Source: Candidatus Heimdallarchaeota archaeon (GTDB lineage Archaea > Asgardarchaeota > Heimdallarchaeia > Hodarchaeales > Hodarchaeaceae). Taken from it: a stretch of DNA of 20,870 nt. The position numbers and the translations under genes are program-made. The stretch lies in NCBI GenBank assembly GCA_019057635.1, contig DXJL01000036.1, positions 1 to 20,870 of the forward strand, written 5' to 3'. The notes beneath the pieces were generated by a model. It worked only from the letters and a program-made list of their open reading frames with translations, was not told the DNA's origin and searched no databases. The stretch's first letter is position 1; every line of letters begins with the position of its first letter. Below, piece after piece: positions 12,491-20,870 of this stretch.

Positions 12491-12653
12491 TTATATTTGC
12501 TCCAAAAGCTTAGAGTTAGTGCAATTATTCCATTCAGAATCTAAATCAAAAGTTTTTTTGGAGAACCTGTATCGACTGTATAGTTAGAGATTTTTAGTCA
12601 TACATTCAGAACTGCTAGATTTATTCTTAGTGAGATTATCCAAATTTTAAAAA

Positions 12654-12788
12654 TTGTTCCCGTTTGCCATGGAAGGTGAAATTACTAAAGAAAAGCGTCT
12701 CGCAGGTGCAAAGGTACTCCGAAATGCTATTCCATTTGAGGAGGAAGCTTTAAAACTCATGAAAGAAGCACTATCTCTTTGGAAATGA
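12654..12788 (+). pseudogene. Small ORF or 3' gene relic (39 aa from ATG 12669)
   Basis: (LFPFA)MEGEITKEKRLAGAKVLRNAIPFEEEALKLMKEALSLWK*: protein-like amphipathic helix, in-frame TAA at 12648-12650 upstream, T-rich terminator-like tract (12805-12828) downstream. Confidence 0.4.
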
Positions 12789-13033
12789 ACTTTACCAAAA
12801 CTACTCTTTTCTTTTTTCCAAAATTTTTCAAGTTACTGTAGAATTTTGACTCCACATACGTTAACATTGAATGAGATATCCTTTCAATACGTGTACTTAA
12901 AGGAAATTTTGAAAGAGTCTATAAATTACTTTTACTTTAGTATACTGAAAGATTAAAAAGAACAATATATGAATTGTGTTTGATTGCTTCTGATCTATTA
13001 GTAGGTTGGATTAATACGGGTTAGGAGTAGTAA

Positions 13034-14083
13034 ATGGTGAAAAAATCTTTTCAGAATTTTTTGGAACAGATCCAAAACACACAAAGACAGGCTATAGAGC
13101 GAGTTGAAAGAGTACAGTCTGATAGACTTCAAGAATTTGATTATCAAGAATATCCTCCAAAAATGATTGCGATCGACGGCTCGAATCGCTGGATCTGGAA
13201 TAATCCCGACATTAATGCACGTATTGCAATTATTCGTACCGCTTATGTTGTTTATGAGTTTAATAGCGACCTTTCCCCTCCTATGCAGATTCTTAATCAA
13301 GGTTCTCAAGATGAAGCGGTTCTGATTGCACCTGATAACCCCAACATTCATACTTATGATCAAGATTTCCAGAAATTGCATACTGAAATACAGAGAATAA
13401 TTGGTCGCAAAAATCCATTAGGGGAAACCCTCTCTTTGCTTCGTTCCCTTGCTGAATTCAAAATGGTGGAGGAATTGGCTAGTAATTATACGGAATCACT
13501 GATTGTGATGGATGGCGCATTGACTTATGTACAGATAAAAGAATTTGAAGACACCATTAGGAATATTGTCAAGGCCTGCAAGAAAAATAACAATATTTTG
13601 ATTGGAGTATCAAAAAGGAATATTACACGGTGGCTTGGATCCGAACTAACTGATGAAGCAGTTATGAGAGAAATTGCCCGAAATGACCAAAAAATGATGT
13701 ATATGGATATTCCAACGATACCCAAATCCCAACAGAAATTCCCATCTATTGGTAAGACTTATCTAGCGAAATTGCATGCAAAACCTGTTAAAACCTTTAG
13801 AGTGGATATTTATAACCCTTTAAATGTAAATGATGATAAAGTTCTGTCACATCTAGCATACTACTCACAGGTGAACACATTTCCTGGGTATCCATTTCCC
13901 TTAGTAGATGCACATACTATTGCAGCCCTTTTAAGGCGTGTTCCGGATATGTATAATCACGAATTACTAGAAGTCGGCATTCAACTTGGTTTCACAGAAG
14001 ATGAATTACTCCAATACATGATAACACATGAAAATATGGAAACTGATCCATTCCACAGATATTTAGACGATGCAACAAGATAA
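13034..14083 (+). CDS. nurA: NurA-family 5'-3' nuclease
   Basis: Catalytic motifs IAIDGS and VMDGAL, IGVSKR, C-terminal GYPFPLVDAH; AGGAG RBS at 13023-13027; adjacent to herA. Confidence 0.88.
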   Translation: MVKKSFQNFLEQIQNTQRQAIERVERVQSDRLQEFDYQEYPPKMIAIDGSNRWIWNNPDINARIAIIRTAYVVYEFNSDLSPPMQILNQGSQDEAVLIAPDNPNIHTYDQDFQKLHTEIQRIIGRKNPLGETLSLLRSLAEFKMVEELASNYTESLIVMDGALTYVQIKEFEDTIRNIVKACKKNNNILIGVSKRNITRWLGSELTDEAVMREIARNDQKMMYMDIPTIPKSQQKFPSIGKTYLAKLHAKPVKTFRVDIYNPLNVNDDKVLSHLAYYSQVNTFPGYPFPLVDAHTIAALLRRVPDMYNHELLEVGIQLGFTEDELLQYMITHENMETDPFHRYLDDATR

Positions 14084-14110
14084 CATTCATTAAAATAAGA
14101 GGACAAGAAT

Positions 14111-15697
14111 ATGAAGAAAGATATTGAAGAAAAGATAGCTCTAGGTGAAGTTATTTCGGGTGCTGTAAGTGGTGCAATCCAATTAAAGCTCAGGACCGAT
14201 AGTGAGGAAGTGAAAATAGGATTTCCTGCAGTCATTGAGGGGAAAAAATATGATTTCTTTTCCATTATTTCTGATATTCAATTCCCAACAAGTAATGCGG
14301 TCACTATGTTAGCAAATGCAGAAAAACTGCGAAATACGATACCCTTGAATACCATCGACACTTCTAGGGGACGTACATTTTATAGTATTGCTGAGCTCCA
14401 GTGTGTTCAAATGATTGAGCAGACATCTGGCAAAGCTTTTGAATTTGAGACCCTTCCCCCTTATTTTTCATCAGGTCGATTAGCGAGTAAATCTGATGTG
14501 CAACGGGTATATCAAACAGACCTCCCTGAAAATACTCAATCAGTTGGAACCCTCAGAGGGGTAGAAGGATTTGAAATTCCAATTGATTTCAAAAAACTCG
14601 TAGAGGTACCGTTTGGGATTTTTGGTCGAACACACTCGGGAAAAACTTTTCTCAATAAGATAATCCTTGGAAATATTATTAAAACTGAGGTATCGCAGAT
14701 TCTGGTTTTTGATATGCAATCCGAATATGGGTGGCGATCCCGCGCTGATAATTCCCCTGGTCTGAAGTTTTTCTTTGAAAATCAAGTCACTCTATTGAGT
14801 CTTGACCCGAGCACAAGTAAAAGCCACGATGAGGATTTATTGATAGGAGAAAACGAAATAGAACCTGAGGATTTAATCGTAGCTTTCCAAGATCTTTCAC
14901 CTACAATGATTGATGCAATTTATGAGATAAATCGAACGAAACCCTCATCACAAACTCTTATGGAAGGAATTCATGCAGCACTGATAGCCGACCCCCCTCC
15001 TCAACGCATTAATCGTGGAACTTTGAACGCTTTGAGTAGACGTATCATGAGATTAGATCGCTTATCTTTTGTAGTGAAATCCGATAAGGGAAATTTGAAT
15101 AACATATTAAAATATATACAATCAGGCCAGAATATTGTAATTGATTTTGGGAAGTTTGGAGCGGATTTCTTCGCGTATGTGTTTGTGGCTAACATAATTT
15201 CTCGTCGATTATATAAAAGCTATAGTGAAATGGTCGATATGAGTGATTATCCTAGACTAGTTGTCCTTCTTGAAGAGGCTCATAAGTTTTTAGACCCCAG
15301 AATCTCGAAAAATACCATTTTTGATAGGCTTGCACGAGAAATGCGTAAATTTAATCTAGTATTGGCAATGGTCGATCAGCGACCTTCGAGAATTGACCCT
15401 GAGATATTATCACAACTCGCAAATCGATTCATTCTTTCCTTAACAGATCCTAAAGATACCATTAATGCTTTAACGGGCCCTGTTGATCCGGCGGCATGGC
15501 GAGCAATTGTACGTGCTATGCCTCCTCGTACTGTATTAATGTTTGGTGACGCAATCCGCGCACCGACGGCCATGGATGTTCTGGAGTATAATGAAAACAC
15601 AATGACTCAAAAATGGCAAATTAGCAGTACGTCCCAGGAGTTACGTGATACTCTTGATTCCCTATCGGATGATGATAAAAGAAACATGTTCAAGTGA
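14111..15697 (+). CDS. herA: HerA-family hexameric ATPase/DNA translocase
   Basis: N-terminal HAS-barrel-like region, Walker A GIFGRTHSGKT, FDMQSEYG, Walker B LLEEAHKF, arginine finger AREMRKF, DQRPSRID. Confidence 0.92.
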   Translation: MKKDIEEKIALGEVISGAVSGAIQLKLRTDSEEVKIGFPAVIEGKKYDFFSIISDIQFPTSNAVTMLANAEKLRNTIPLNTIDTSRGRTFYSIAELQCVQMIEQTSGKAFEFETLPPYFSSGRLASKSDVQRVYQTDLPENTQSVGTLRGVEGFEIPIDFKKLVEVPFGIFGRTHSGKTFLNKIILGNIIKTEVSQILVFDMQSEYGWRSRADNSPGLKFFFENQVTLLSLDPSTSKSHDEDLLIGENEIEPEDLIVAFQDLSPTMIDAIYEINRTKPSSQTLMEGIHAALIADPPPQRINRGTLNALSRRIMRLDRLSFVVKSDKGNLNNILKYIQSGQNIVIDFGKFGADFFAYVFVANIISRRLYKSYSEMVDMSDYPRLVVLLEEAHKFLDPRISKNTIFDRLAREMRKFNLVLAMVDQRPSRIDPEILSQLANRFILSLTDPKDTINALTGPVDPAAWRAIVRAMPPRTVLMFGDAIRAPTAMDVLEYNENTMTQKWQISSTSQELRDTLDSLSDDDKRNMFK

Positions 15698-15731
15698 TTA
15701 ATCCTTATTTTTAATTCGAGATTTGATTAGA

Positions 15732-16955
15732 ATGGCAAAAATTGTCATAGTGGGAGATGTCCATATTGGAAAGCGATATGCATATCGTGTCAATTTGAAA
15801 ACAGGCATTAGCGACCGTACTTTAGATTTTATTAATGCTCTTTCTAGAGTAGTTGCTTATGCAATCAATAATAAGGCCGATATATTTATCATTGCAGGGG
15901 ATCTGTACGATCGCGTCACAGTCGGTCCAACACTTCTTCGACAAGTTAGAGAAACAATTTGGCAGCCTCTTATTGAAGCAAAAATTCCGATAGTTTGTAT
16001 TGGGGGAAATCATGACTCACCGCAAATATTTGAGAAAGGATCACCATTGGGAGAAATTTCTCTTTTTCCGAATAGTATTGTAGCACGATCTCCACAAACC
16101 GCTATAGTACACACTATGACTACAAAGGAAGAAATTGGTTTTCTTCTCCTACCATATCTAACGGCATCCCAAGTTGTGAAGTTTGTAGAAGAACGTCTTG
16201 GTAAATCTGTCGAGAAGGAAAGACAGATGGTTTTAAGTCAAGAATATCTTAAATACTTTATAGAAAATGAATTAAAACAACTTCCCACTAAGACAAATCT
16301 TCTTGTTGGTCATTACTTCTTTCAAGGATCCAAAATTAATATTATTCCATACCCAGATCATCTTCCTCATGAATTCAAATTTAAGAAAGATATGCTACCA
16401 TTAGATAAAATTGACCTAGCAATATTCGGTCATATTCATACCACTCAAACTTTACATGGTGGAAAAGTTTTAGTTCCTGGATCATTGGAACGAGTAGATT
16501 TTGGTGAGGTGAACGAGGATAAAGGATTTTATGTATTCGAAACTACAACAGGAAAGCTAGAATTTATTACAAATAATCCTCGTTCGTTAGTTAAACAGTT
16601 TATTGAAGTACCAAGGGTAGAGGATCCTACAAATTACATAATTCAAAATTTACCAAGAACATTAGAAGAGTCTATTGTCCGTATAATTATAAAAATATCC
16701 CCCGAATTAAAGAAGAAAGTACGTCTGCCACGTATTCATCAAGCGTTAGATTCAACATTTTATTTTGAATTGTTCTGGGATACTTCTATAACTCAACGTG
16801 AAATAGTTCTCACTGATTTTGTTCTAGATCCATTAGTCTTATTTAATGACTTTATTACGAGAAAATTTGATCAAGACCCCAATTTGGAACAATTACGTCA
16901 AAAAGGATTAGAAATTCTTGATCGAGCACTCGCTCAGGTGGAGGAAAAGCTATGA
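15732..16955 (+). CDS. mre11: Mre11/SbcD metallophosphoesterase nuclease
   Basis: Five phosphoesterase motifs GDVHIG, GDLYD, GNHDS, GHY, GHIH, then GSLERVDFGE. ATG at 15732 preferred over TTG at 15723. Confidence 0.93.
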   Translation: MAKIVIVGDVHIGKRYAYRVNLKTGISDRTLDFINALSRVVAYAINNKADIFIIAGDLYDRVTVGPTLLRQVRETIWQPLIEAKIPIVCIGGNHDSPQIFEKGSPLGEISLFPNSIVARSPQTAIVHTMTTKEEIGFLLLPYLTASQVVKFVEERLGKSVEKERQMVLSQEYLKYFIENELKQLPTKTNLLVGHYFFQGSKINIIPYPDHLPHEFKFKKDMLPLDKIDLAIFGHIHTTQTLHGGKVLVPGSLERVDFGEVNEDKGFYVFETTTGKLEFITNNPRSLVKQFIEVPRVEDPTNYIIQNLPRTLEESIVRIIIKISPELKKKVRLPRIHQALDSTFYFELFWDTSITQREIVLTDFVLDPLVLFNDFITRKFDQDPNLEQLRQKGLEILDRALAQVEEKL

Positions 16956-19327
16956 GCGATACATCCCATCACTCTTTCGGGGGAGGTTTTGATCTAATTT
17001 CTCTCGAAATATATCGCTTCATGAATTATCTGGGGAAACCAGTTAAATTTGCTTTCAATGCTCCCAATATCGTCATCTCTGGTCCAACCGGTTCAGGAAA
17101 AACAACAATTTTAGATGCCCTAACATTTGCTCTATTCGGTAGAAGCTCCCGATTGGATCTTACTATTGTTAAAACAGAAGATATATGTGGGAATAATGGA
17201 AGAGTAACTTGTGAATTCCATATAGACAAAATCTATTACAAAATTATCCGTGGGAGGGACAGTAAGGGCAAAAGCTTTTTAGAACTGTTTATCAACAATG
17301 AACGGATTAATGGGAAAATTCCTGAGTTAAATGAGAAAATTCGGTCTACCATCCTTGGAATGAATTATGCTGCTTTTGTAAATTCGACGATCATTCGCCA
17401 AGATGAGATGAAATCACTGGGGTCTAAATCCTCAACAGAACGATTAAAAACATTACAAAACCTATTTCGACTGGATATTTTTAATAAAGCTATACAAGAC
17501 ACTCAAGAACAACTAATGACAATAAATGGCTTGAAAAATAAAGTAGAGGGTGAATTCCAAACAAATAAGAAGAATTTTTCCTCTAAAATACTTTTAGAAA
17601 AGAAAGTAAATCAATTAGTTCCTCAATTACAGAAATTGAAGAGTGAGGAAAAGAAGTCATTCAAGATAATCGGTGAAAAGGAACTAGAGAAGAATGAGAA
17701 ACAAGAATTACATGAAAAATTCCAAATCACTTTAGATAGTATGAAAAACTCTGAAAAACAACTTATGAAGCTTGAAAATTCAGAGAGGAAAGCAGAAGAA
17801 GAATTAAAAAAATATATGAAATTAAAAAATAATTCTATGGTTTTAGAGAAGCAAATTGAAGTAATTCGTAATCATGATGAGGAAATAAGATCTCTTGAAA
17901 GCAAGAAAAAAGAGTATACATTTGTAAAATCTGGGATAGAAAAATTGATCCAGAGACGAAGGAAAGATGAATTACGACTCAGAAAAGATACAGAAAAGAA
18001 GAATAATCTGAAAGCAGAAACAGTAAAGCGAATTGCGAACCTTACGACCGATATCGATCATAAAAAGGCTTTTCAAATCTTGCAGCAGGAGGGAAGATTA
18101 GGGGAACGAATTCAAAGAATTTCTCTTGAAAAATCATGGAAATTACCCGAAAAACTCATTCAGGAATTACAACAGGAACAATTAAACGCAAGATCTGATC
18201 TCAAAGAGTTATTAACGGAGAAAACAAAGATCAATATCGACTCTTTTAGATTATCTGAAATCCAAGACACGGAAAACCAGCTATTAGCAGAAATCGAGAA
18301 ATTAAATGAACGATTAAGCGAGTTAAAGGAATCTTCAGAGAAGGAAATCCAAGAAGAGAAAAACAAGCAAAAGAAGATTGGATTTTCTCCAGAAGTACAG
18401 AAACATCTTGATATGTTGAAAAACTCACAAATTACGAATGAAAAGATAAAAAAAGAGTATACTACAGCAAAACATAACTTAGAGTCAATAATTGATCCTA
18501 CAAGCAAGATAAATACCCTACTAAATCAAATCAAAGTGAATAAAGAAGAGATAGCAAGCTTTCGAGAGGAACTAAAAGATTATCGACAATTTCAAAAGGA
18601 GTATGAATTTCTTAAAACTGACTTGAAAGAAAAAAAAGAAAGTGCCGAAAAATTACAGATCCAATGTGTTCGCATGGATCAGGATATTAAGAACCTGCAA
18701 TTTAATATTCTAGAACTTCAAAAATTAGTGCCAGAAATTAAAAAACTTGAGAAAAAGTTGGATAAGTTTATTCAGGAAGAAAACGTTTTAATTAAACTGA
18801 AGAATGAGGTGTTTCATATAAGGGGCGCTCCTTTCTATGCAATTAACAAGATACTCCCTCATCTTGGTAAGCGTGCTTCCCTAATTTTATCAGATTTAAC
18901 AAGCCGAAGATTAACTAGTGTTCAATTAGAACGAATTGATAAAGGAAAACAAGGTTTGGGGTTCAACATTAACATCCAAACTCCTCAAGGACCTCGGGAT
19001 ATTTCAACCTTTTCTGGTGGTGAACGTACTCAAATTAATGCGGCATTAAGATTAGCGATCAGTGAAGAGCTTTCCTCATTTGGGGGAGAAATAGCTCAAG
19101 AATCAGGAACAAAGAAGACACTGTTTATTGATGAGGGAGATTTGGGATCCCTTGATACTATGGAAGCTCAACAAGCATTTGTCAAGAAACTCTTTGAATT
19201 AAGTAATAAATTCAAGATCATTTTAATTACTCACATCACAGAAATTGCGGATCAATTTCCACATTCCATTCAGATTACACGTGATACGTACGGGAGATCT
19301 ATGAAAAGTGATGCGAGTGATACATAG
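16952..19327 (+). CDS. rad50: Rad50/SbcC SMC-like ATPase lacking the CXXC zinc hook
   Basis: Walker A GPTGSGKTT, Q-loop IIRQDE, long coiled coil, signature FSGGE, Walker B/D-loop LFIDEGDLGSLD, ITH. ATGA overlap with the mre11 stop. Confidence 0.92.
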   Translation: MSDTSHHSFGGGFDLISLEIYRFMNYLGKPVKFAFNAPNIVISGPTGSGKTTILDALTFALFGRSSRLDLTIVKTEDICGNNGRVTCEFHIDKIYYKIIRGRDSKGKSFLELFINNERINGKIPELNEKIRSTILGMNYAAFVNSTIIRQDEMKSLGSKSSTERLKTLQNLFRLDIFNKAIQDTQEQLMTINGLKNKVEGEFQTNKKNFSSKILLEKKVNQLVPQLQKLKSEEKKSFKIIGEKELEKNEKQELHEKFQITLDSMKNSEKQLMKLENSERKAEEELKKYMKLKNNSMVLEKQIEVIRNHDEEIRSLESKKKEYTFVKSGIEKLIQRRRKDELRLRKDTEKKNNLKAETVKRIANLTTDIDHKKAFQILQQEGRLGERIQRISLEKSWKLPEKLIQELQQEQLNARSDLKELLTEKTKINIDSFRLSEIQDTENQLLAEIEKLNERLSELKESSEKEIQEEKNKQKKIGFSPEVQKHLDMLKNSQITNEKIKKEYTTAKHNLESIIDPTSKINTLLNQIKVNKEEIASFREELKDYRQFQKEYEFLKTDLKEKKESAEKLQIQCVRMDQDIKNLQFNILELQKLVPEIKKLEKKLDKFIQEENVLIKLKNEVFHIRGAPFYAINKILPHLGKRASLILSDLTSRRLTSVQLERIDKGKQGLGFNINIQTPQGPRDISTFSGGERTQINAALRLAISEELSSFGGEIAQESGTKKTLFIDEGDLGSLDTMEAQQAFVKKLFELSNKFKIILITHITEIADQFPHSIQITRDTYGRSMKSDASDT

Positions 19328-20870
19328 TGATTTCAGAATTCATTGAAAAAATTAAGAATACATCATATTACAAAGACCAAATTATATTTCAAAGAAGTAT
19401 TCCTGCGAAAGACCCCCAATTTGGATCCCTTACCTTCCAATTAGCTCCAGAACTTGAGCAATGGCTGAGAGAGAACGAATGGAAGCTTTATTCTCACCAA
19501 GTAGATGCCCTGAATTTTATAAATAAAGGAAAAAATGTTGTTGTAACCACTTCAACAGCATCGGGTAAAACATTAATTTTTTCATTGGCGGTAGCTCAGG
19601 CAATCACTCAAAGAGAAAATTCAACGGCATTATTTTTATATCCTATGAAAGCACTAGCTAATGATCAGCTCAGCAAAATGGAAGAACTGAACACAGTATT
19701 GGAGGGAAGACTGCGACCTTTTATTTATGATGGAGACACACCTTCTGAAAGACGACCAGCGATTCGAAATACCGCTCGGGTTATTATCTCAAATCCATAT
19801 GCCTTCCATCGCTATTTAGACTGGCATTCAAAGTGGGAACGATTTTTTCGAAATCTACGATTTTGTGTTATTGACGAGGCACATTCCTACCGAGGAGTGT
19901 TTGGTTCAAATGTAGCACAGCTTATTCGGAGATTACAAAGGATCTGTGAATTCTATCGTTCACAACCACAATTTATTCTCTCTTCAGCAACAATAAACAA
20001 TCCAAAAGAATTTGCTGAGAAGCTTATTGGTACTCCTCTTCACATCATCACGAATGATGGTTCTCAGCAAGGTTCAAAGGAATTAGTTATATGGAACCCT
20101 CCCTTTGTCGATCAATTTGATTCAAAACGAAGATCACCGCATCAAGAGACACGTGATTTACTTTTTAGCCATTTAAGTGAACATTATCAGACGCTTTGCT
20201 TCACCCTTTCAAGAAAGATGTCGGAAATCATTACAGTCTGGGCGCGTCAAGATCTCGAGAAGCACGAATTAGATCCTGAACAAGTAATGGCTTATCGAGC
20301 AGGGTATCGTCCCCTAGAACGAAGGAGAATTGAGAGCCAATTAAGGAATCGGGAAATATCTGCAGTTGTTAGTACAAATGCTCTTGAAGTAGGTATTGAT
20401 ATTGGCAATCTAGATGCAGTGCTTTTAAGTGGATTCCCAGGTACAATAATTTCAACTTGGCAACAAATCGGACGTGTTGGTAGAACTACTCGTCCTTCTC
20501 TTGCCACTCTAGTTCTCTTTGAAGACGCTTATCAGCAGTTCTTAGGGCGTCATCCAGAATATTTCCTAGAGAAGACCCCTGAAAATGCTATTATTGATTT
20601 AAACAATCCATATATTGTAAAAGGTCATATTTTGTGTGCAGCATCAGAATTACCTATTAAAAAAGCTGAAATCAGCAAAATATGGGGAGAGGTGGGGATG
20701 AAAGTAATCAAAGAATTATTAAAGCAGGATGTTCTAAAACTAGTTCCTGCAGGTATAGTTCCCAAGTCAATTAAGCATCCTTCACAACAAGTCAGTTTAA
20801 ATTCAGCATTTACAGAGTCTATTGAGATTATAGTGAGTGAAAAGTTGTTAGAAACGATGACAACGGCCCA
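19327..20870 (+). CDS. SF2 DEAH-box helicase of the MrfA/YprA/Hrq1/SftH type (DUF1998-associated); continues beyond right edge
   Basis: Not in ORF track. GTG at 19327 overlaps the rad50 TAG; frame open to window end. Motifs LYSHQ, TSTASGKT, YPMKALANDQ, YDGDTP, SNP, VIDEAHSYRGVFGSNVA, SSATINNP, AYRAGY, STNALEVGIDIG, QQIGRVGR, NPYIVKGHILCAASELP. Confidence 0.92.
   Translation, partial: MISEFIEKIKNTSYYKDQIIFQRSIPAKDPQFGSLTFQLAPELEQWLRENEWKLYSHQVDALNFINKGKNVVVTTSTASGKTLIFSLAVAQAITQRENSTALFLYPMKALANDQLSKMEELNTVLEGRLRPFIYDGDTPSERRPAIRNTARVIISNPYAFHRYLDWHSKWERFFRNLRFCVIDEAHSYRGVFGSNVAQLIRRLQRICEFYRSQPQFILSSATINNPKEFAEKLIGTPLHIITNDGSQQGSKELVIWNPPFVDQFDSKRRSPHQETRDLLFSHLSEHYQTLCFTLSRKMSEIITVWARQDLEKHELDPEQVMAYRAGYRPLERRRIESQLRNREISAVVSTNALEVGIDIGNLDAVLLSGFPGTIISTWQQIGRVGRTTRPSLATLVLFEDAYQQFLGRHPEYFLEKTPENAIIDLNNPYIVKGHILCAASELPIKKAEISKIWGEVGMKVIKELLKQDVLKLVPAGIVPKSIKHPSQQVSLNSAFTESIEIIVSEKLLETMTTA

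Follow-up and report, generated by a model that had tools for sequence, protein, structure and literature searches.

A predicted archaeal end-resection operon joined to an MrfA-type repair helicase gene in one genus-level clade of Hodarchaeales

The window, by which we mean the whole stretch of DNA analyzed here, is an entire contig (C212, 20,870 bases) of assembly G000 (3.19 Mb in 214 contigs, 91.6% complete, 36% G+C). The host is an Asgard archaeon of the Hodarchaeales type. Five co-oriented open reading frames (ORFs) extend across positions 13034–20870 of the plus strand: nurA, herA, mre11, rad50 and an MrfA/YprA-type helicase gene. This five-gene operon is the subject of the present analysis. 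On sequence comparison, it represents a clade-specific joining of the archaeal end-resection operon with an MrfA repair helicase, which coincides with the non-detection of MrfB, the usual partner of that helicase. Below, G000 denotes the genome that holds the window, other G numbers denote the compared genomes and L numbers the fetched loci. Families were called from Pfam and NCBIfam profiles; no NCBIfam model reached its curated cut-off. The operon and its leader comprise the following features.

12786 to 13033, plus strand: non-coding operon leader, from the sequence as read and an alignment of nine genus loci
13034 to 14083, plus strand: nurA, NurA-family nuclease, 349 amino acids, ATG start (PF09376 3.2e-14, profile positions 2–253 of 254)
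14111 to 15697, plus strand: herA, HerA/FtsK-type hexameric ATPase, 528 amino acids, ATG start (PF01935 DUF87 2.9e-19)
15723 to 16955, plus strand: mre11, Mre11/SbcD phosphoesterase nuclease, 410 amino acids counted from a TTG (Metallophos 6.4e-15)
16952 to 19327, plus strand: rad50, Rad50/SbcC-type coiled-coil ABC ATPase, 791 amino acids, ATG start (AAA_23, SMC_N, sbcC TIGR00618 at 116 bits)
19327 to 20870, plus strand: mrfA/yprA-type (Hrq1-like) superfamily 2 DEAH helicase, N-terminal 514 residues, GTG start (DEAD 1.1e-31, Helicase_C 7.7e-15, TIGR03817 461 bits)

The genes are closely packed. A gap of 27 nucleotides (nt) separates nurA from herA. The next gap, between herA and mre11, is 34 nt when measured to the ATG at 15732 and 25 nt when measured to the upstream TTG; the longer value is the likelier one because the Met encoded by this ATG is invariant in six orthologs, and the ATG is the likely true start of mre11. 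The junction of mre11 and rad50 is an ATGA overlap, and the GTG start of the helicase gene lies on the rad50 stop codon (TAGTG). An earlier, sequence-only reading of this DNA had described five co-oriented genes with gaps of 27 and 34 nt followed by these two overlaps, and the ORF list and junction sequences agree with that description throughout. Its gene family calls hold against the Pfam and NCBIfam matches, and its proposal of tight coupling is supported by the junctions in the window and by the spacing kept across the genus loci described below.

The helicase gene is truncated in the window. Its ORF (19327–20868) is open at the 3′ end, and 514 residues are encoded before the contig stops; because the window is the whole of contig C212, the cut is a feature of the assembly and not a stop codon. 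The C terminus was not found elsewhere in the G000 assembly by tblastn or with PF09369. Contig C21 of G000 ends inside the subtilase that comes after the helicase in sister genomes, and the missing piece therefore lies in an assembly gap. The full-length protein is available from G002, in which a contig collinear with window positions 12643–20870 (98.1% nucleotide identity) encodes a helicase ortholog of 754 amino acids (L038:8476-10740) that is 97% identical to the window helicase. Motif I (TASGKT) and motif II (DEAH) are seen in both proteins. In the window helicase, RecA2 is followed by a winged helix (PF22982 WHD_HRQ1, 6e-10, residues 423–491). The sequence-only reading had pointed to a C-terminal four-cysteine DUF1998 domain as a feature to look for; the window copy stops short of this region, and the domain is present in the G002 ortholog (MZB/DUF1998 PF09369, 1.5e-23, with Cys 659 and CPCSEGCPSC at 714–723). 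The helicase of G010 also has MZB/DUF1998 with the Cys cluster. The G002 ortholog carries no fused nuclease domain.

Against Bacillus subtilis YprA/MrfA (6znp_A), residues 53–726 of the G002 ortholog align to residues 56–732 of the chain (E 9.6e-147, 493.6 bits). Bell et al. (2025; bioRxiv preprint, 10.1101/2025.09.15.676423) distinguish two branches of the YprA family, one for defense and one for repair, the latter standalone or paired with MrfB. Because the full-length match to 6znp is far stronger than the partial matches to defense models, the operon helicase is classed from its sequence as repair-type MrfA/YprA in the sense of these authors. A paralogous MrfA-like helicase of 919 amino acids is encoded on contig C165 of G000 (L003:865-3624) and is 31% identical to the operon helicase. 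It aligns to positions 24–740 of TIGR03817 and has no Pfam MZB match. Paralogs of the C165 type (850–930 amino acids) occur throughout the genus and in many Asgard families.

A helicase ortholog was identified in 18 of 21 same-genus genomes (63–97% identity), and rad50 is directly upstream of the helicase in all 17 same-genus loci that were fetched. All five genes are on one contig in nine of the 17; a contig end interrupts the operon in seven, and the locus of G015 (L048) is split. In G009, which is not among the 17, mre11 and the helicase N terminus share a contig and are 2.4 kb apart. Spacing between rad50 and the helicase could be evaluated at 18 loci, namely the window, the metagenome locus L163 and all fetched loci but L054 (16 of 17), and ranges from −4 to +21 nt; between mre11 and rad50, it is either −4 or −1 nt (14 loci). 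Rad50 identity falls to 42–46% while the spacing to the helicase stays tight. Given the adjacency in 17 of 17 loci and the spacing retained despite this divergence, the arrangement is more than chance, and the junctions are too short to hold a separate promoter or terminator. Orthologs of nurA hold the corresponding position in the genus loci. The flanks are also kept: several genomes have the 4Fe-4S (fer4) and 2-hydroxyacid dehydrogenase (2-HADH) genes upstream, and in 12 loci the operon is followed by a convergent gene for a subtilase of ∼1240 amino acids. A second MrfA in G006 (L153, contig C284 of 4738 bases) was considered as a second copy and rejected. It nests among sequences of Asgard family f14 on a short contig and is probably bin contamination, the genome being rated 7% contaminated.

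The order nurA-herA-mre11-rad50 is also found in the Asgard genomes G051, G134, G189 and G254, with G243 partly covered, and G063 has mre11-rad50-nurA-herA. The helicase is present at none of these six core-operon loci. At 23 Asgard helicase loci outside the genus, none of nurA, herA, mre11 or rad50 was found within ∼±8 kb, divergent queries included; the helicase start is too close to a contig end to judge the upstream side in two of the 23. The rad50-linked helicases form one clade in a 40-sequence tree (support 100/100, recovered in 100% of 200 bootstrap trees). By these sequence comparisons, the four-gene core is an Asgard arrangement and the helicase an addition in one genus-level clade. 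The five-gene order, which the sequence-only reading had put forward as a candidate new system, is indeed conserved in the genus, but it is confined to that one clade and is not a widespread system. In G189, G254 and G243, a single ORF encodes an Mre11-Rad50 fusion of ∼1190 amino acids (L158:7057-10632, L159:6913-10491 and L160:1285-4854). The G254 product has Metallophos at its N terminus and AAA_23/SMC_N from about residue 420. An OLD-family nuclease gene (AAA_15 plus OLD-like TOPRIM, 653 amino acids; L159:4928-6889, minus strand) follows the G254 fusion after ∼24 nt on the same strand, and is another lineage-specific add-on to the nurA-herA-mre11-rad50 operon.

Outside the clade, the helicase gene has a different neighbor. 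In G102, G074, G048 and G035 (helicases 44–50% identical), an mrfB-like gene is directly upstream and overlaps the helicase start. The encoded proteins have ∼355–390 amino acids and match RNase_H_2 (PF13482), which identifies them as YprB/MrfB-type DnaQ-like exonucleases. Coordinates place mrfB and mrfA side by side in G053, G065, G082, G097 and G118 as well. Among the 79 closest metagenomic relatives of the helicase (41–64% identity), an mrfB-like gene is immediately upstream in 72. One (L163) has nurA-herA-mre11-rad50 with the helicase and belongs to the present clade, its helicase being 95% identical to that of G006. The other six have neither context, and two of these have less than 35 bp of upstream sequence. 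The mrfB-mrfA arrangement is the normal, tightly coupled pair, as it is in B. subtilis. The sequence-only reading had anticipated an MrfB/YprB gene downstream of the helicase; there is none, mrfB lies upstream of the helicase in relatives, and in the genus it was not found.

At E ≤ 1e-10, an MrfB-like gene was recovered in 76 of 301 sampled Asgard genomes. The counts by Asgard family are 61/68 in f14, 6/6 in f23, 3/5 in f20, 1/1 in f15, 1/2 in f9, 1/2 in f2, 2/7 in f27 and 1/11 in f4. With one query at the same threshold, and in incomplete metagenome-assembled genomes (MAGs), no MrfB-like gene was found in 20 genomes of the genus or in G000. This query did recover matches of ∼30% identity in far more distant families. 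The MrfB-like protein of G035 found no match in G000 when used as the query. The RNase_H_2 (PF13482) matches in G000 are limited to two family-B DNA polymerases, and tblastn of G000 with three MrfB-like proteins returned the same two polymerases alone. Families with an MrfA ortholog almost always have MrfB; the other exception is G063.

A second, independent linkage of mrfA to nurA-herA was identified on a metagenome contig (L169:4328-10292, G+C 47%), where the order is nurA-herA-mrfB-mrfA with junctions of −4, 13 and −8 nt. An archaeal rRNA operon adjoins these four genes, whose products are as follows.

L169 nurA: 351 amino acids (PF09376 5e-35)
L169 herA: 513 amino acids (HAS-barrel, DUF87 and HerA_C)
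L169 mrfB: 357 amino acids
L169 mrfA: 763 amino acids, with MZB

The L169 helicase is ∼100% identical to a protein annotated Candidatus Altiarchaeales. In the tree it is well separated from the Hodarchaeales helicases, so mrfA has come to lie at the end of an operon led by nurA-herA in two unrelated archaeal lineages. What lies between nurA-herA and mrfA is mrfB in L169 and mre11-rad50 in the Hodarchaeales clade. Both are tight operons that join MrfA to NurA-HerA with the helicase last, but L169 keeps mrfB, has no mre11-rad50 in the operon and belongs to a different phylum-level lineage and helicase clade. The L169 arrangement, represented by a single contig, is apparently undescribed.

We give an even chance to the explanation that we favor, which is that a housekeeping repair operon captured MrfA and that its nucleases took over from MrfB as partners of the helicase. 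NurA-HerA would provide the 5′-strand resection motor and nuclease, and Mre11-Rad50 the end sensor and nuclease. The ancestor of one genus-level clade would then have gained, within this operon, the gene for a repair-branch MrfA/YprA (Hrq1-like) 3′–5′ helicase. The five genes are most likely on one transcript, with mrfA translationally coupled to rad50; mrfB would have gone from the clade, and mre11-rad50 would fill its position. MrfA could then unwind DNA that is damaged or blocked, whether by adducts or crosslinks or at protein-blocked or structured ends, and pass the strands to the operon nucleases. Such a pathway would merge lesion excision with break resection, so that DNA is unwound and trimmed en route to recombination. 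The exonuclease polarity of Mre11 is 3′–5′. Since MrfB has the same polarity and mre11-rad50 stands in the mrfB position, Mre11 is the best candidate for the partner; NurA is the alternative because nurA-herA is common to both independent operons. MrfB is reported to be a 3′–5′ DEDDh exonuclease and MrfA a 3′–5′ helicase (PMC12345164), and MrfB prefers linear DNA (PMC12345164; 10.1101/426304). Co-folding of Mre11 with helicase residues 235–754 scored 0.00 in two runs whose controls were not folded, which weighs neither for nor against an interaction. We infer from the arrangement of the genes that they are co-transcribed, that their products cooperate and which nuclease the helicase works with. 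A further-reaching version, which we think unlikely, would make the MrfA/Hrq1-type helicase an integral fifth component that docks on Mre11-Rad50 or NurA in place of MrfB. Cooperation of RecQ4/Hrq1 with Mre11-Rad50 would then predate eukaryotes or would have arisen in parallel in archaeal relatives, and the recurrent joining of mrfA to nurA-herA would reveal that these helicases have a general, hitherto unrecognized role at DNA ends. Eukaryotic cooperation between RecQ and MRN is cited here as an analogy.

Several observations weigh against the capture of MrfA as a working partner of the operon nucleases. The single helicase clade means that the linkage arose once, so the conserved loci amount to one event and not to 17 independent observations. 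No insertion or deletion sets the helicases of the clade apart, and only 11 columns, scattered over the domains, discriminate them. G007, G011 and G013, which are assigned to the same genus, have neither the helicase ortholog nor this Mre11. They carry a different nurA-herA pair (L131:7724-10320, L132:7388-10939 and L133:4036-6586) with HerA 25–27% identical to that of the window and no adjacent mre11-rad50; SbcD/Mre11 was not found in G007 and G011 and gave weak matches only in G013. Since these three do without it, the module is dispensable or replaceable. On the closed, single-contig chromosome of G015, rad50 is split and the operon halves are ∼520 kb apart. A 224-residue N-terminal Rad50 fragment is encoded beside mre11-herA-nurA at ∼240 kb (L134:7858-12467), where the ORF runs into a convergent class-I tRNA synthetase gene, and a 622-residue C-terminal fragment accompanies the helicase at ∼760 kb (L048:7145-11358). 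The split is either a real rearrangement or a misassembly. The two ORFs ahead of the C-terminal half match no convincing Pfam family, with one sub-threshold match. The MrfB survey covered MAGs that are 64–99% complete with one query at E ≤ 1e-10, so its outcome is that the gene was not found, and absence is not proven. In G063, where MrfB was likewise not found, MrfA is unlinked to the mre11-rad50-nurA-herA operon, and in many Asgard families (f14, f20 and f27) mrfA either lies 10 kb from mrfB or is not linked to it; MrfA therefore need not adjoin a partner and may act alone. Relocation of an MrfB module into the operon proteins was tried as an explanation and rejected, there being no similarity at E ≤ 10 beyond noise.

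It is possible, if somewhat doubtful, that the genes are co-transcribed without mechanistic coupling. A rearrangement would have put mrfA behind rad50, where it was kept for the shared promoter; MrfA, alone or with an unnamed partner, would act on lesions apart from end resection, and the loss of mrfB would be a separate matter. The absence of clade-specific indels or added domains from the helicase and the confinement of the linkage to a single event in one clade are both in keeping with this explanation. So are the G015 locus, in which the helicase adjoins merely a 3′ fragment of rad50, the many Asgard families whose MrfA stands alone, MrfB being encoded elsewhere or undetected, and the statement that the repair branch has "no conserved genomic context" (Bell et al., 2025; 10.1101/2025.09.15.676423). 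It accounts less well for a junction held at −4 to +21 nt through divergence to 42–46% Rad50 identity, or for the fact that MrfB went undetected in exactly this clade (0/20 and G000, versus 76/301 in the phylum sample). It also fits poorly with the unrelated archaeon that independently joined mrfB-mrfA to nurA-herA. MrfA might instead be a RecQ/Sgs1-like resection helicase for ordinary double-strand breaks, the MrfB lesion pathway having simply been lost. The purely end-resecting context of the operon, the 3′–5′ polarity of the family (PMC12345164; 10.1101/426304) and the fact that both independent linkages share nurA-herA and not mre11-rad50 would suit such a role. We nonetheless hold it to be quite improbable. 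L169 keeps mrfB beside nurA-herA, which indicates that linkage needs no surrender of the MrfB pathway; deletions of mrfA or mrfB in B. subtilis are reported to sensitize cells only to mitomycin C (10.1101/426304), and HerA-NurA is described as already being a self-sufficient motor-nuclease in the archaea studied.

The sequence-only reading had left the choice open between repair and a defense system, and the latter now appears very improbable. Such a system, comparable to DISARM, Druantia, Dpd, ARMADA or HerA-based systems, would act against mobile elements at the ends of linear foreign DNA. YprA-family helicases and HerA ATPases do occur in defense systems (10.1101/2025.09.15.676423), and the related G254 operon has an OLD-family nuclease gene after its fused mre11-rad50. 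PADLOC, which had been proposed as a check, returned partial matches to HerA (up to 84.7 bits), LmuB (48.8), SngC (139), DruE (114.6) and DrmA (69.4). These are matches to generic ATPase and helicase cores, and no partner genes accompany them. Matches of the helicase to the SngC, DruE, BrxH, DrmA and DpdJ/F models are limited to the helicase core and much weaker than that to the repair enzyme 6znp, whose 494 bits lie far above any defense model. NurA has no PADLOC match. The anti-phage HerA models of NCBIfam have cut-offs of 800 and 850 bits; window HerA scores 66 and 55 bits, with matches confined to its C-terminal part. There is no methyltransferase, DrmB/C, DruH or fused nuclease in the operon, and no PLD/Vsr nuclease (fused or downstream) and no BrxHII- or PglX-like partner was found. 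A second mre11/rad50/nurA set, for which the sequence-only reading had also proposed to look, was not found in the genome: G000 has one NurA, one Mre11/SbcD-like protein and one Rad50 of the operon kind, other matches being SMC-like or weak. The flanks of this sole set are conserved housekeeping genes, and the operon helicases form one vertically inherited clade. The five-gene arrangement occurs in none of 33 viral-contig loci, of which 31 have only a distant Mre11 (≤32% identity) with or without Rad50 and two have the helicase, one of them with mrfB. The sequence-only reading had named a single, conserved copy as grounds for giving up the defense interpretation, and that interpretation falls, the operon being such a copy at a stable locus. 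The full-length MrfA match and the housekeeping context support repair, the other role that had been proposed.

The closest known counterpart is the archaeal HerA-NurA/Mre11-Rad50 operon of Sulfolobus, Pyrococcus and Thermococcus, which has the same four families in one operon, with mre11 overlapping rad50. The window operon likewise has intact Mre11, Rad50 and HerA motifs and is the sole copy in its genome. It differs in its order, nurA-herA-mre11-rad50 as opposed to the herA-mre11-rad50-nurA of thermophiles, in its Rad50, which has no CxxC hook, in that the NCBIfam equivalog cut-offs are unmet and in the appended fifth gene, mrfA. As judged by its G002 ortholog, the helicase is a full-length homolog of B. 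subtilis MrfA (structures 6znp, 6znq and 6zns), with the same DEAD, Helicase_C, winged-helix and MZB domains and the same Cys cluster. In B. subtilis, MrfA and MrfB are reported to interact and to form one mitomycin C repair pathway (10.1101/426304), whereas no MrfB was found in the genus and the coupled upstream gene is rad50. The archaeal pairs have mrfB before mrfA and an exonuclease domain that follows an N-terminal extension of ∼180 amino acids; in B. subtilis MrfB, a C-terminal TPR follows the exonuclease domain (10.1101/426304). The YprA defense systems (DISARM, Dpd, Druantia, ARMADA, BRIGADE and TALON) share the helicase superfamily and the DUF1998/MZB module (10.1101/2025.09.15.676423). 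They differ from the window helicase, which is of the repair type, is single-copy at a core chromosomal locus and has none of their partners.

With eukaryotic Hrq1/RecQ4, the operon helicase shares its family and domain pattern, as judged by its Pfam matches (WHD_HRQ1, and MZB in the G002 ortholog). In eukaryotes, RECQL4 cooperates with MRN. None of the 120 best matches listed, out of 7,697 helicase relatives, is a eukaryotic Hrq1. Hrq1 and MrfA are reported to share 32% identity and their domain structure (10.1101/426304), and Hrq1 to stimulate a nuclease (Hrq1-Pso2) in crosslink repair (10.1101/773267). Eukaryotes are without NurA according to the available text of a 2026 NurA review (PMC13748450), which describes Asgard NurA as biochemically uncharacterized and Asgard resection proteins as wholly uncharacterized. 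A term search of this review returned no Hrq1, MrfA or DUF1998. The main text of Bell et al. (2025), supplements aside, contains no Mre11, Rad50, HerA, NurA, SbcC or Asgard. No description of the five-gene arrangement was found in the literature on Asgard and archaeal Mre11-Rad50, HerA-NurA, MrfA/Hrq1/YprA/DUF1998 and the Rad50 zinc hook, which agrees with the earlier remark that it was not known as a described system.

Of 8,000 candidates scored, more than 7,600 are relatives at E ≤ 1e-30, which shows how widespread the MrfA/Hrq1 family is; only in B. subtilis and yeast, however, are working partners of its members known. The clade offers a natural experiment in which the usual exonuclease gene appears to be gone and the helicase gene has been joined to the Mre11-Rad50 and HerA-NurA genes. 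Judged by gene order, the five-gene set suggests a partner swap between two known repair modules. The two joins yield a testable hypothesis, that the helicase feeds strands to end-processing nucleases, and they suggest that archaeal break resection has accessory helicases, as eukaryotes do. The Asgard group is often placed nearest to eukaryotes, a placement that is contested (PMC10307638; PMC12222021). If the coupling is only regulatory, the result is a modest note on operon evolution.

Catalytic motifs are intact in HerA, Mre11, Rad50 and the helicase. HerA has a Walker A motif (GRTHSGKT) at residue 172 and is the best-conserved operon protein, with 68–99% identity within the genus. The HAS-barrel profile (PF09378) does not match window HerA at E ≤ 0.01 and matches L169 HerA at 2.9e-12. 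The HerA-like ORF of G007 has 828 amino acids. Mre11 scores 75.8 bits with sbcD (TIGR00619; cut-off 77.65) and contains the motifs DVH (12), GDLYD (59), GNHD (95) and GHIH (236), whose residues are invariant in six orthologs save for variable spacers at positions 13, 62 and 238.

Rad50 has AAA_23 and SMC_N matches at its N terminus, matches PRK03918 at 76.7 bits and carries the head motifs Walker A (GPTGSGKT, 44), signature (SGGE, 688) and Walker B (LFIDE, 724). The spacing of these motifs suggests a long coiled coil. No CxxC zinc hook was found: there is no C..C motif in window Rad50, which has Cys only at 79, 87 and 572. The hook was also not found in four genus orthologs or in the operon Rad50s of G063, G051, G189 and G254. 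The CPLC of G134 Rad50 is the only zinc-hook motif among the Rad50s compared. In the hookless proteins, the apex shows a conserved ISLE(Q/K)SW ... IN(K/Q)DSF pattern (window 16952–19327, L157:11252-13660, L162:6426-8855, L158:7057-10632 and L159:6913-10491). An identity as ASRP was considered for this Rad50-like protein and rejected, the ASRP score being 16.8 bits versus 116 bits with sbcC. ASRPs are described as mostly having a zinc hook, and the available text of that paper contains no Mre11 (PMC9389158).

The operon leader contains a Shine-Dalgarno-like TTAGGAG at 13021–13027 and an A/T-rich box, AAGATTAAAAAGA, ∼70 nt ahead of the nurA start. TTAGGRG is kept in most rows of the nine-locus genus alignment, with an A/T-rich element at about equal distance. 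The box AAGATTAAAAAGA is a candidate archaeal TATA element and may act as the operon promoter. Just upstream, window 12633–12785 is a remnant of 51 amino acids that is 90% identical to the C terminus of a 333-residue ORF, intact in G002 (L038:936-1937), which matches no known family. Collinearity with G002 starts at window 12643, which places a rearrangement or deletion breakpoint just upstream of the leader. An ORF of 127 amino acids (window 12998–13381, minus strand) lies antisense over the nurA start and has no family match. The frame probably exists by chance; that it is likewise open in G002 (L038:2147-2530) would reflect how nearly identical the two genomes are. The remainder of the window holds ordinary metabolic and transport genes, encoding a glycosyltransferase, an ABC sugar transporter, a 2-hydroxyacid dehydrogenase, a 4Fe-4S protein and a pyridoxal phosphate decarboxylase.

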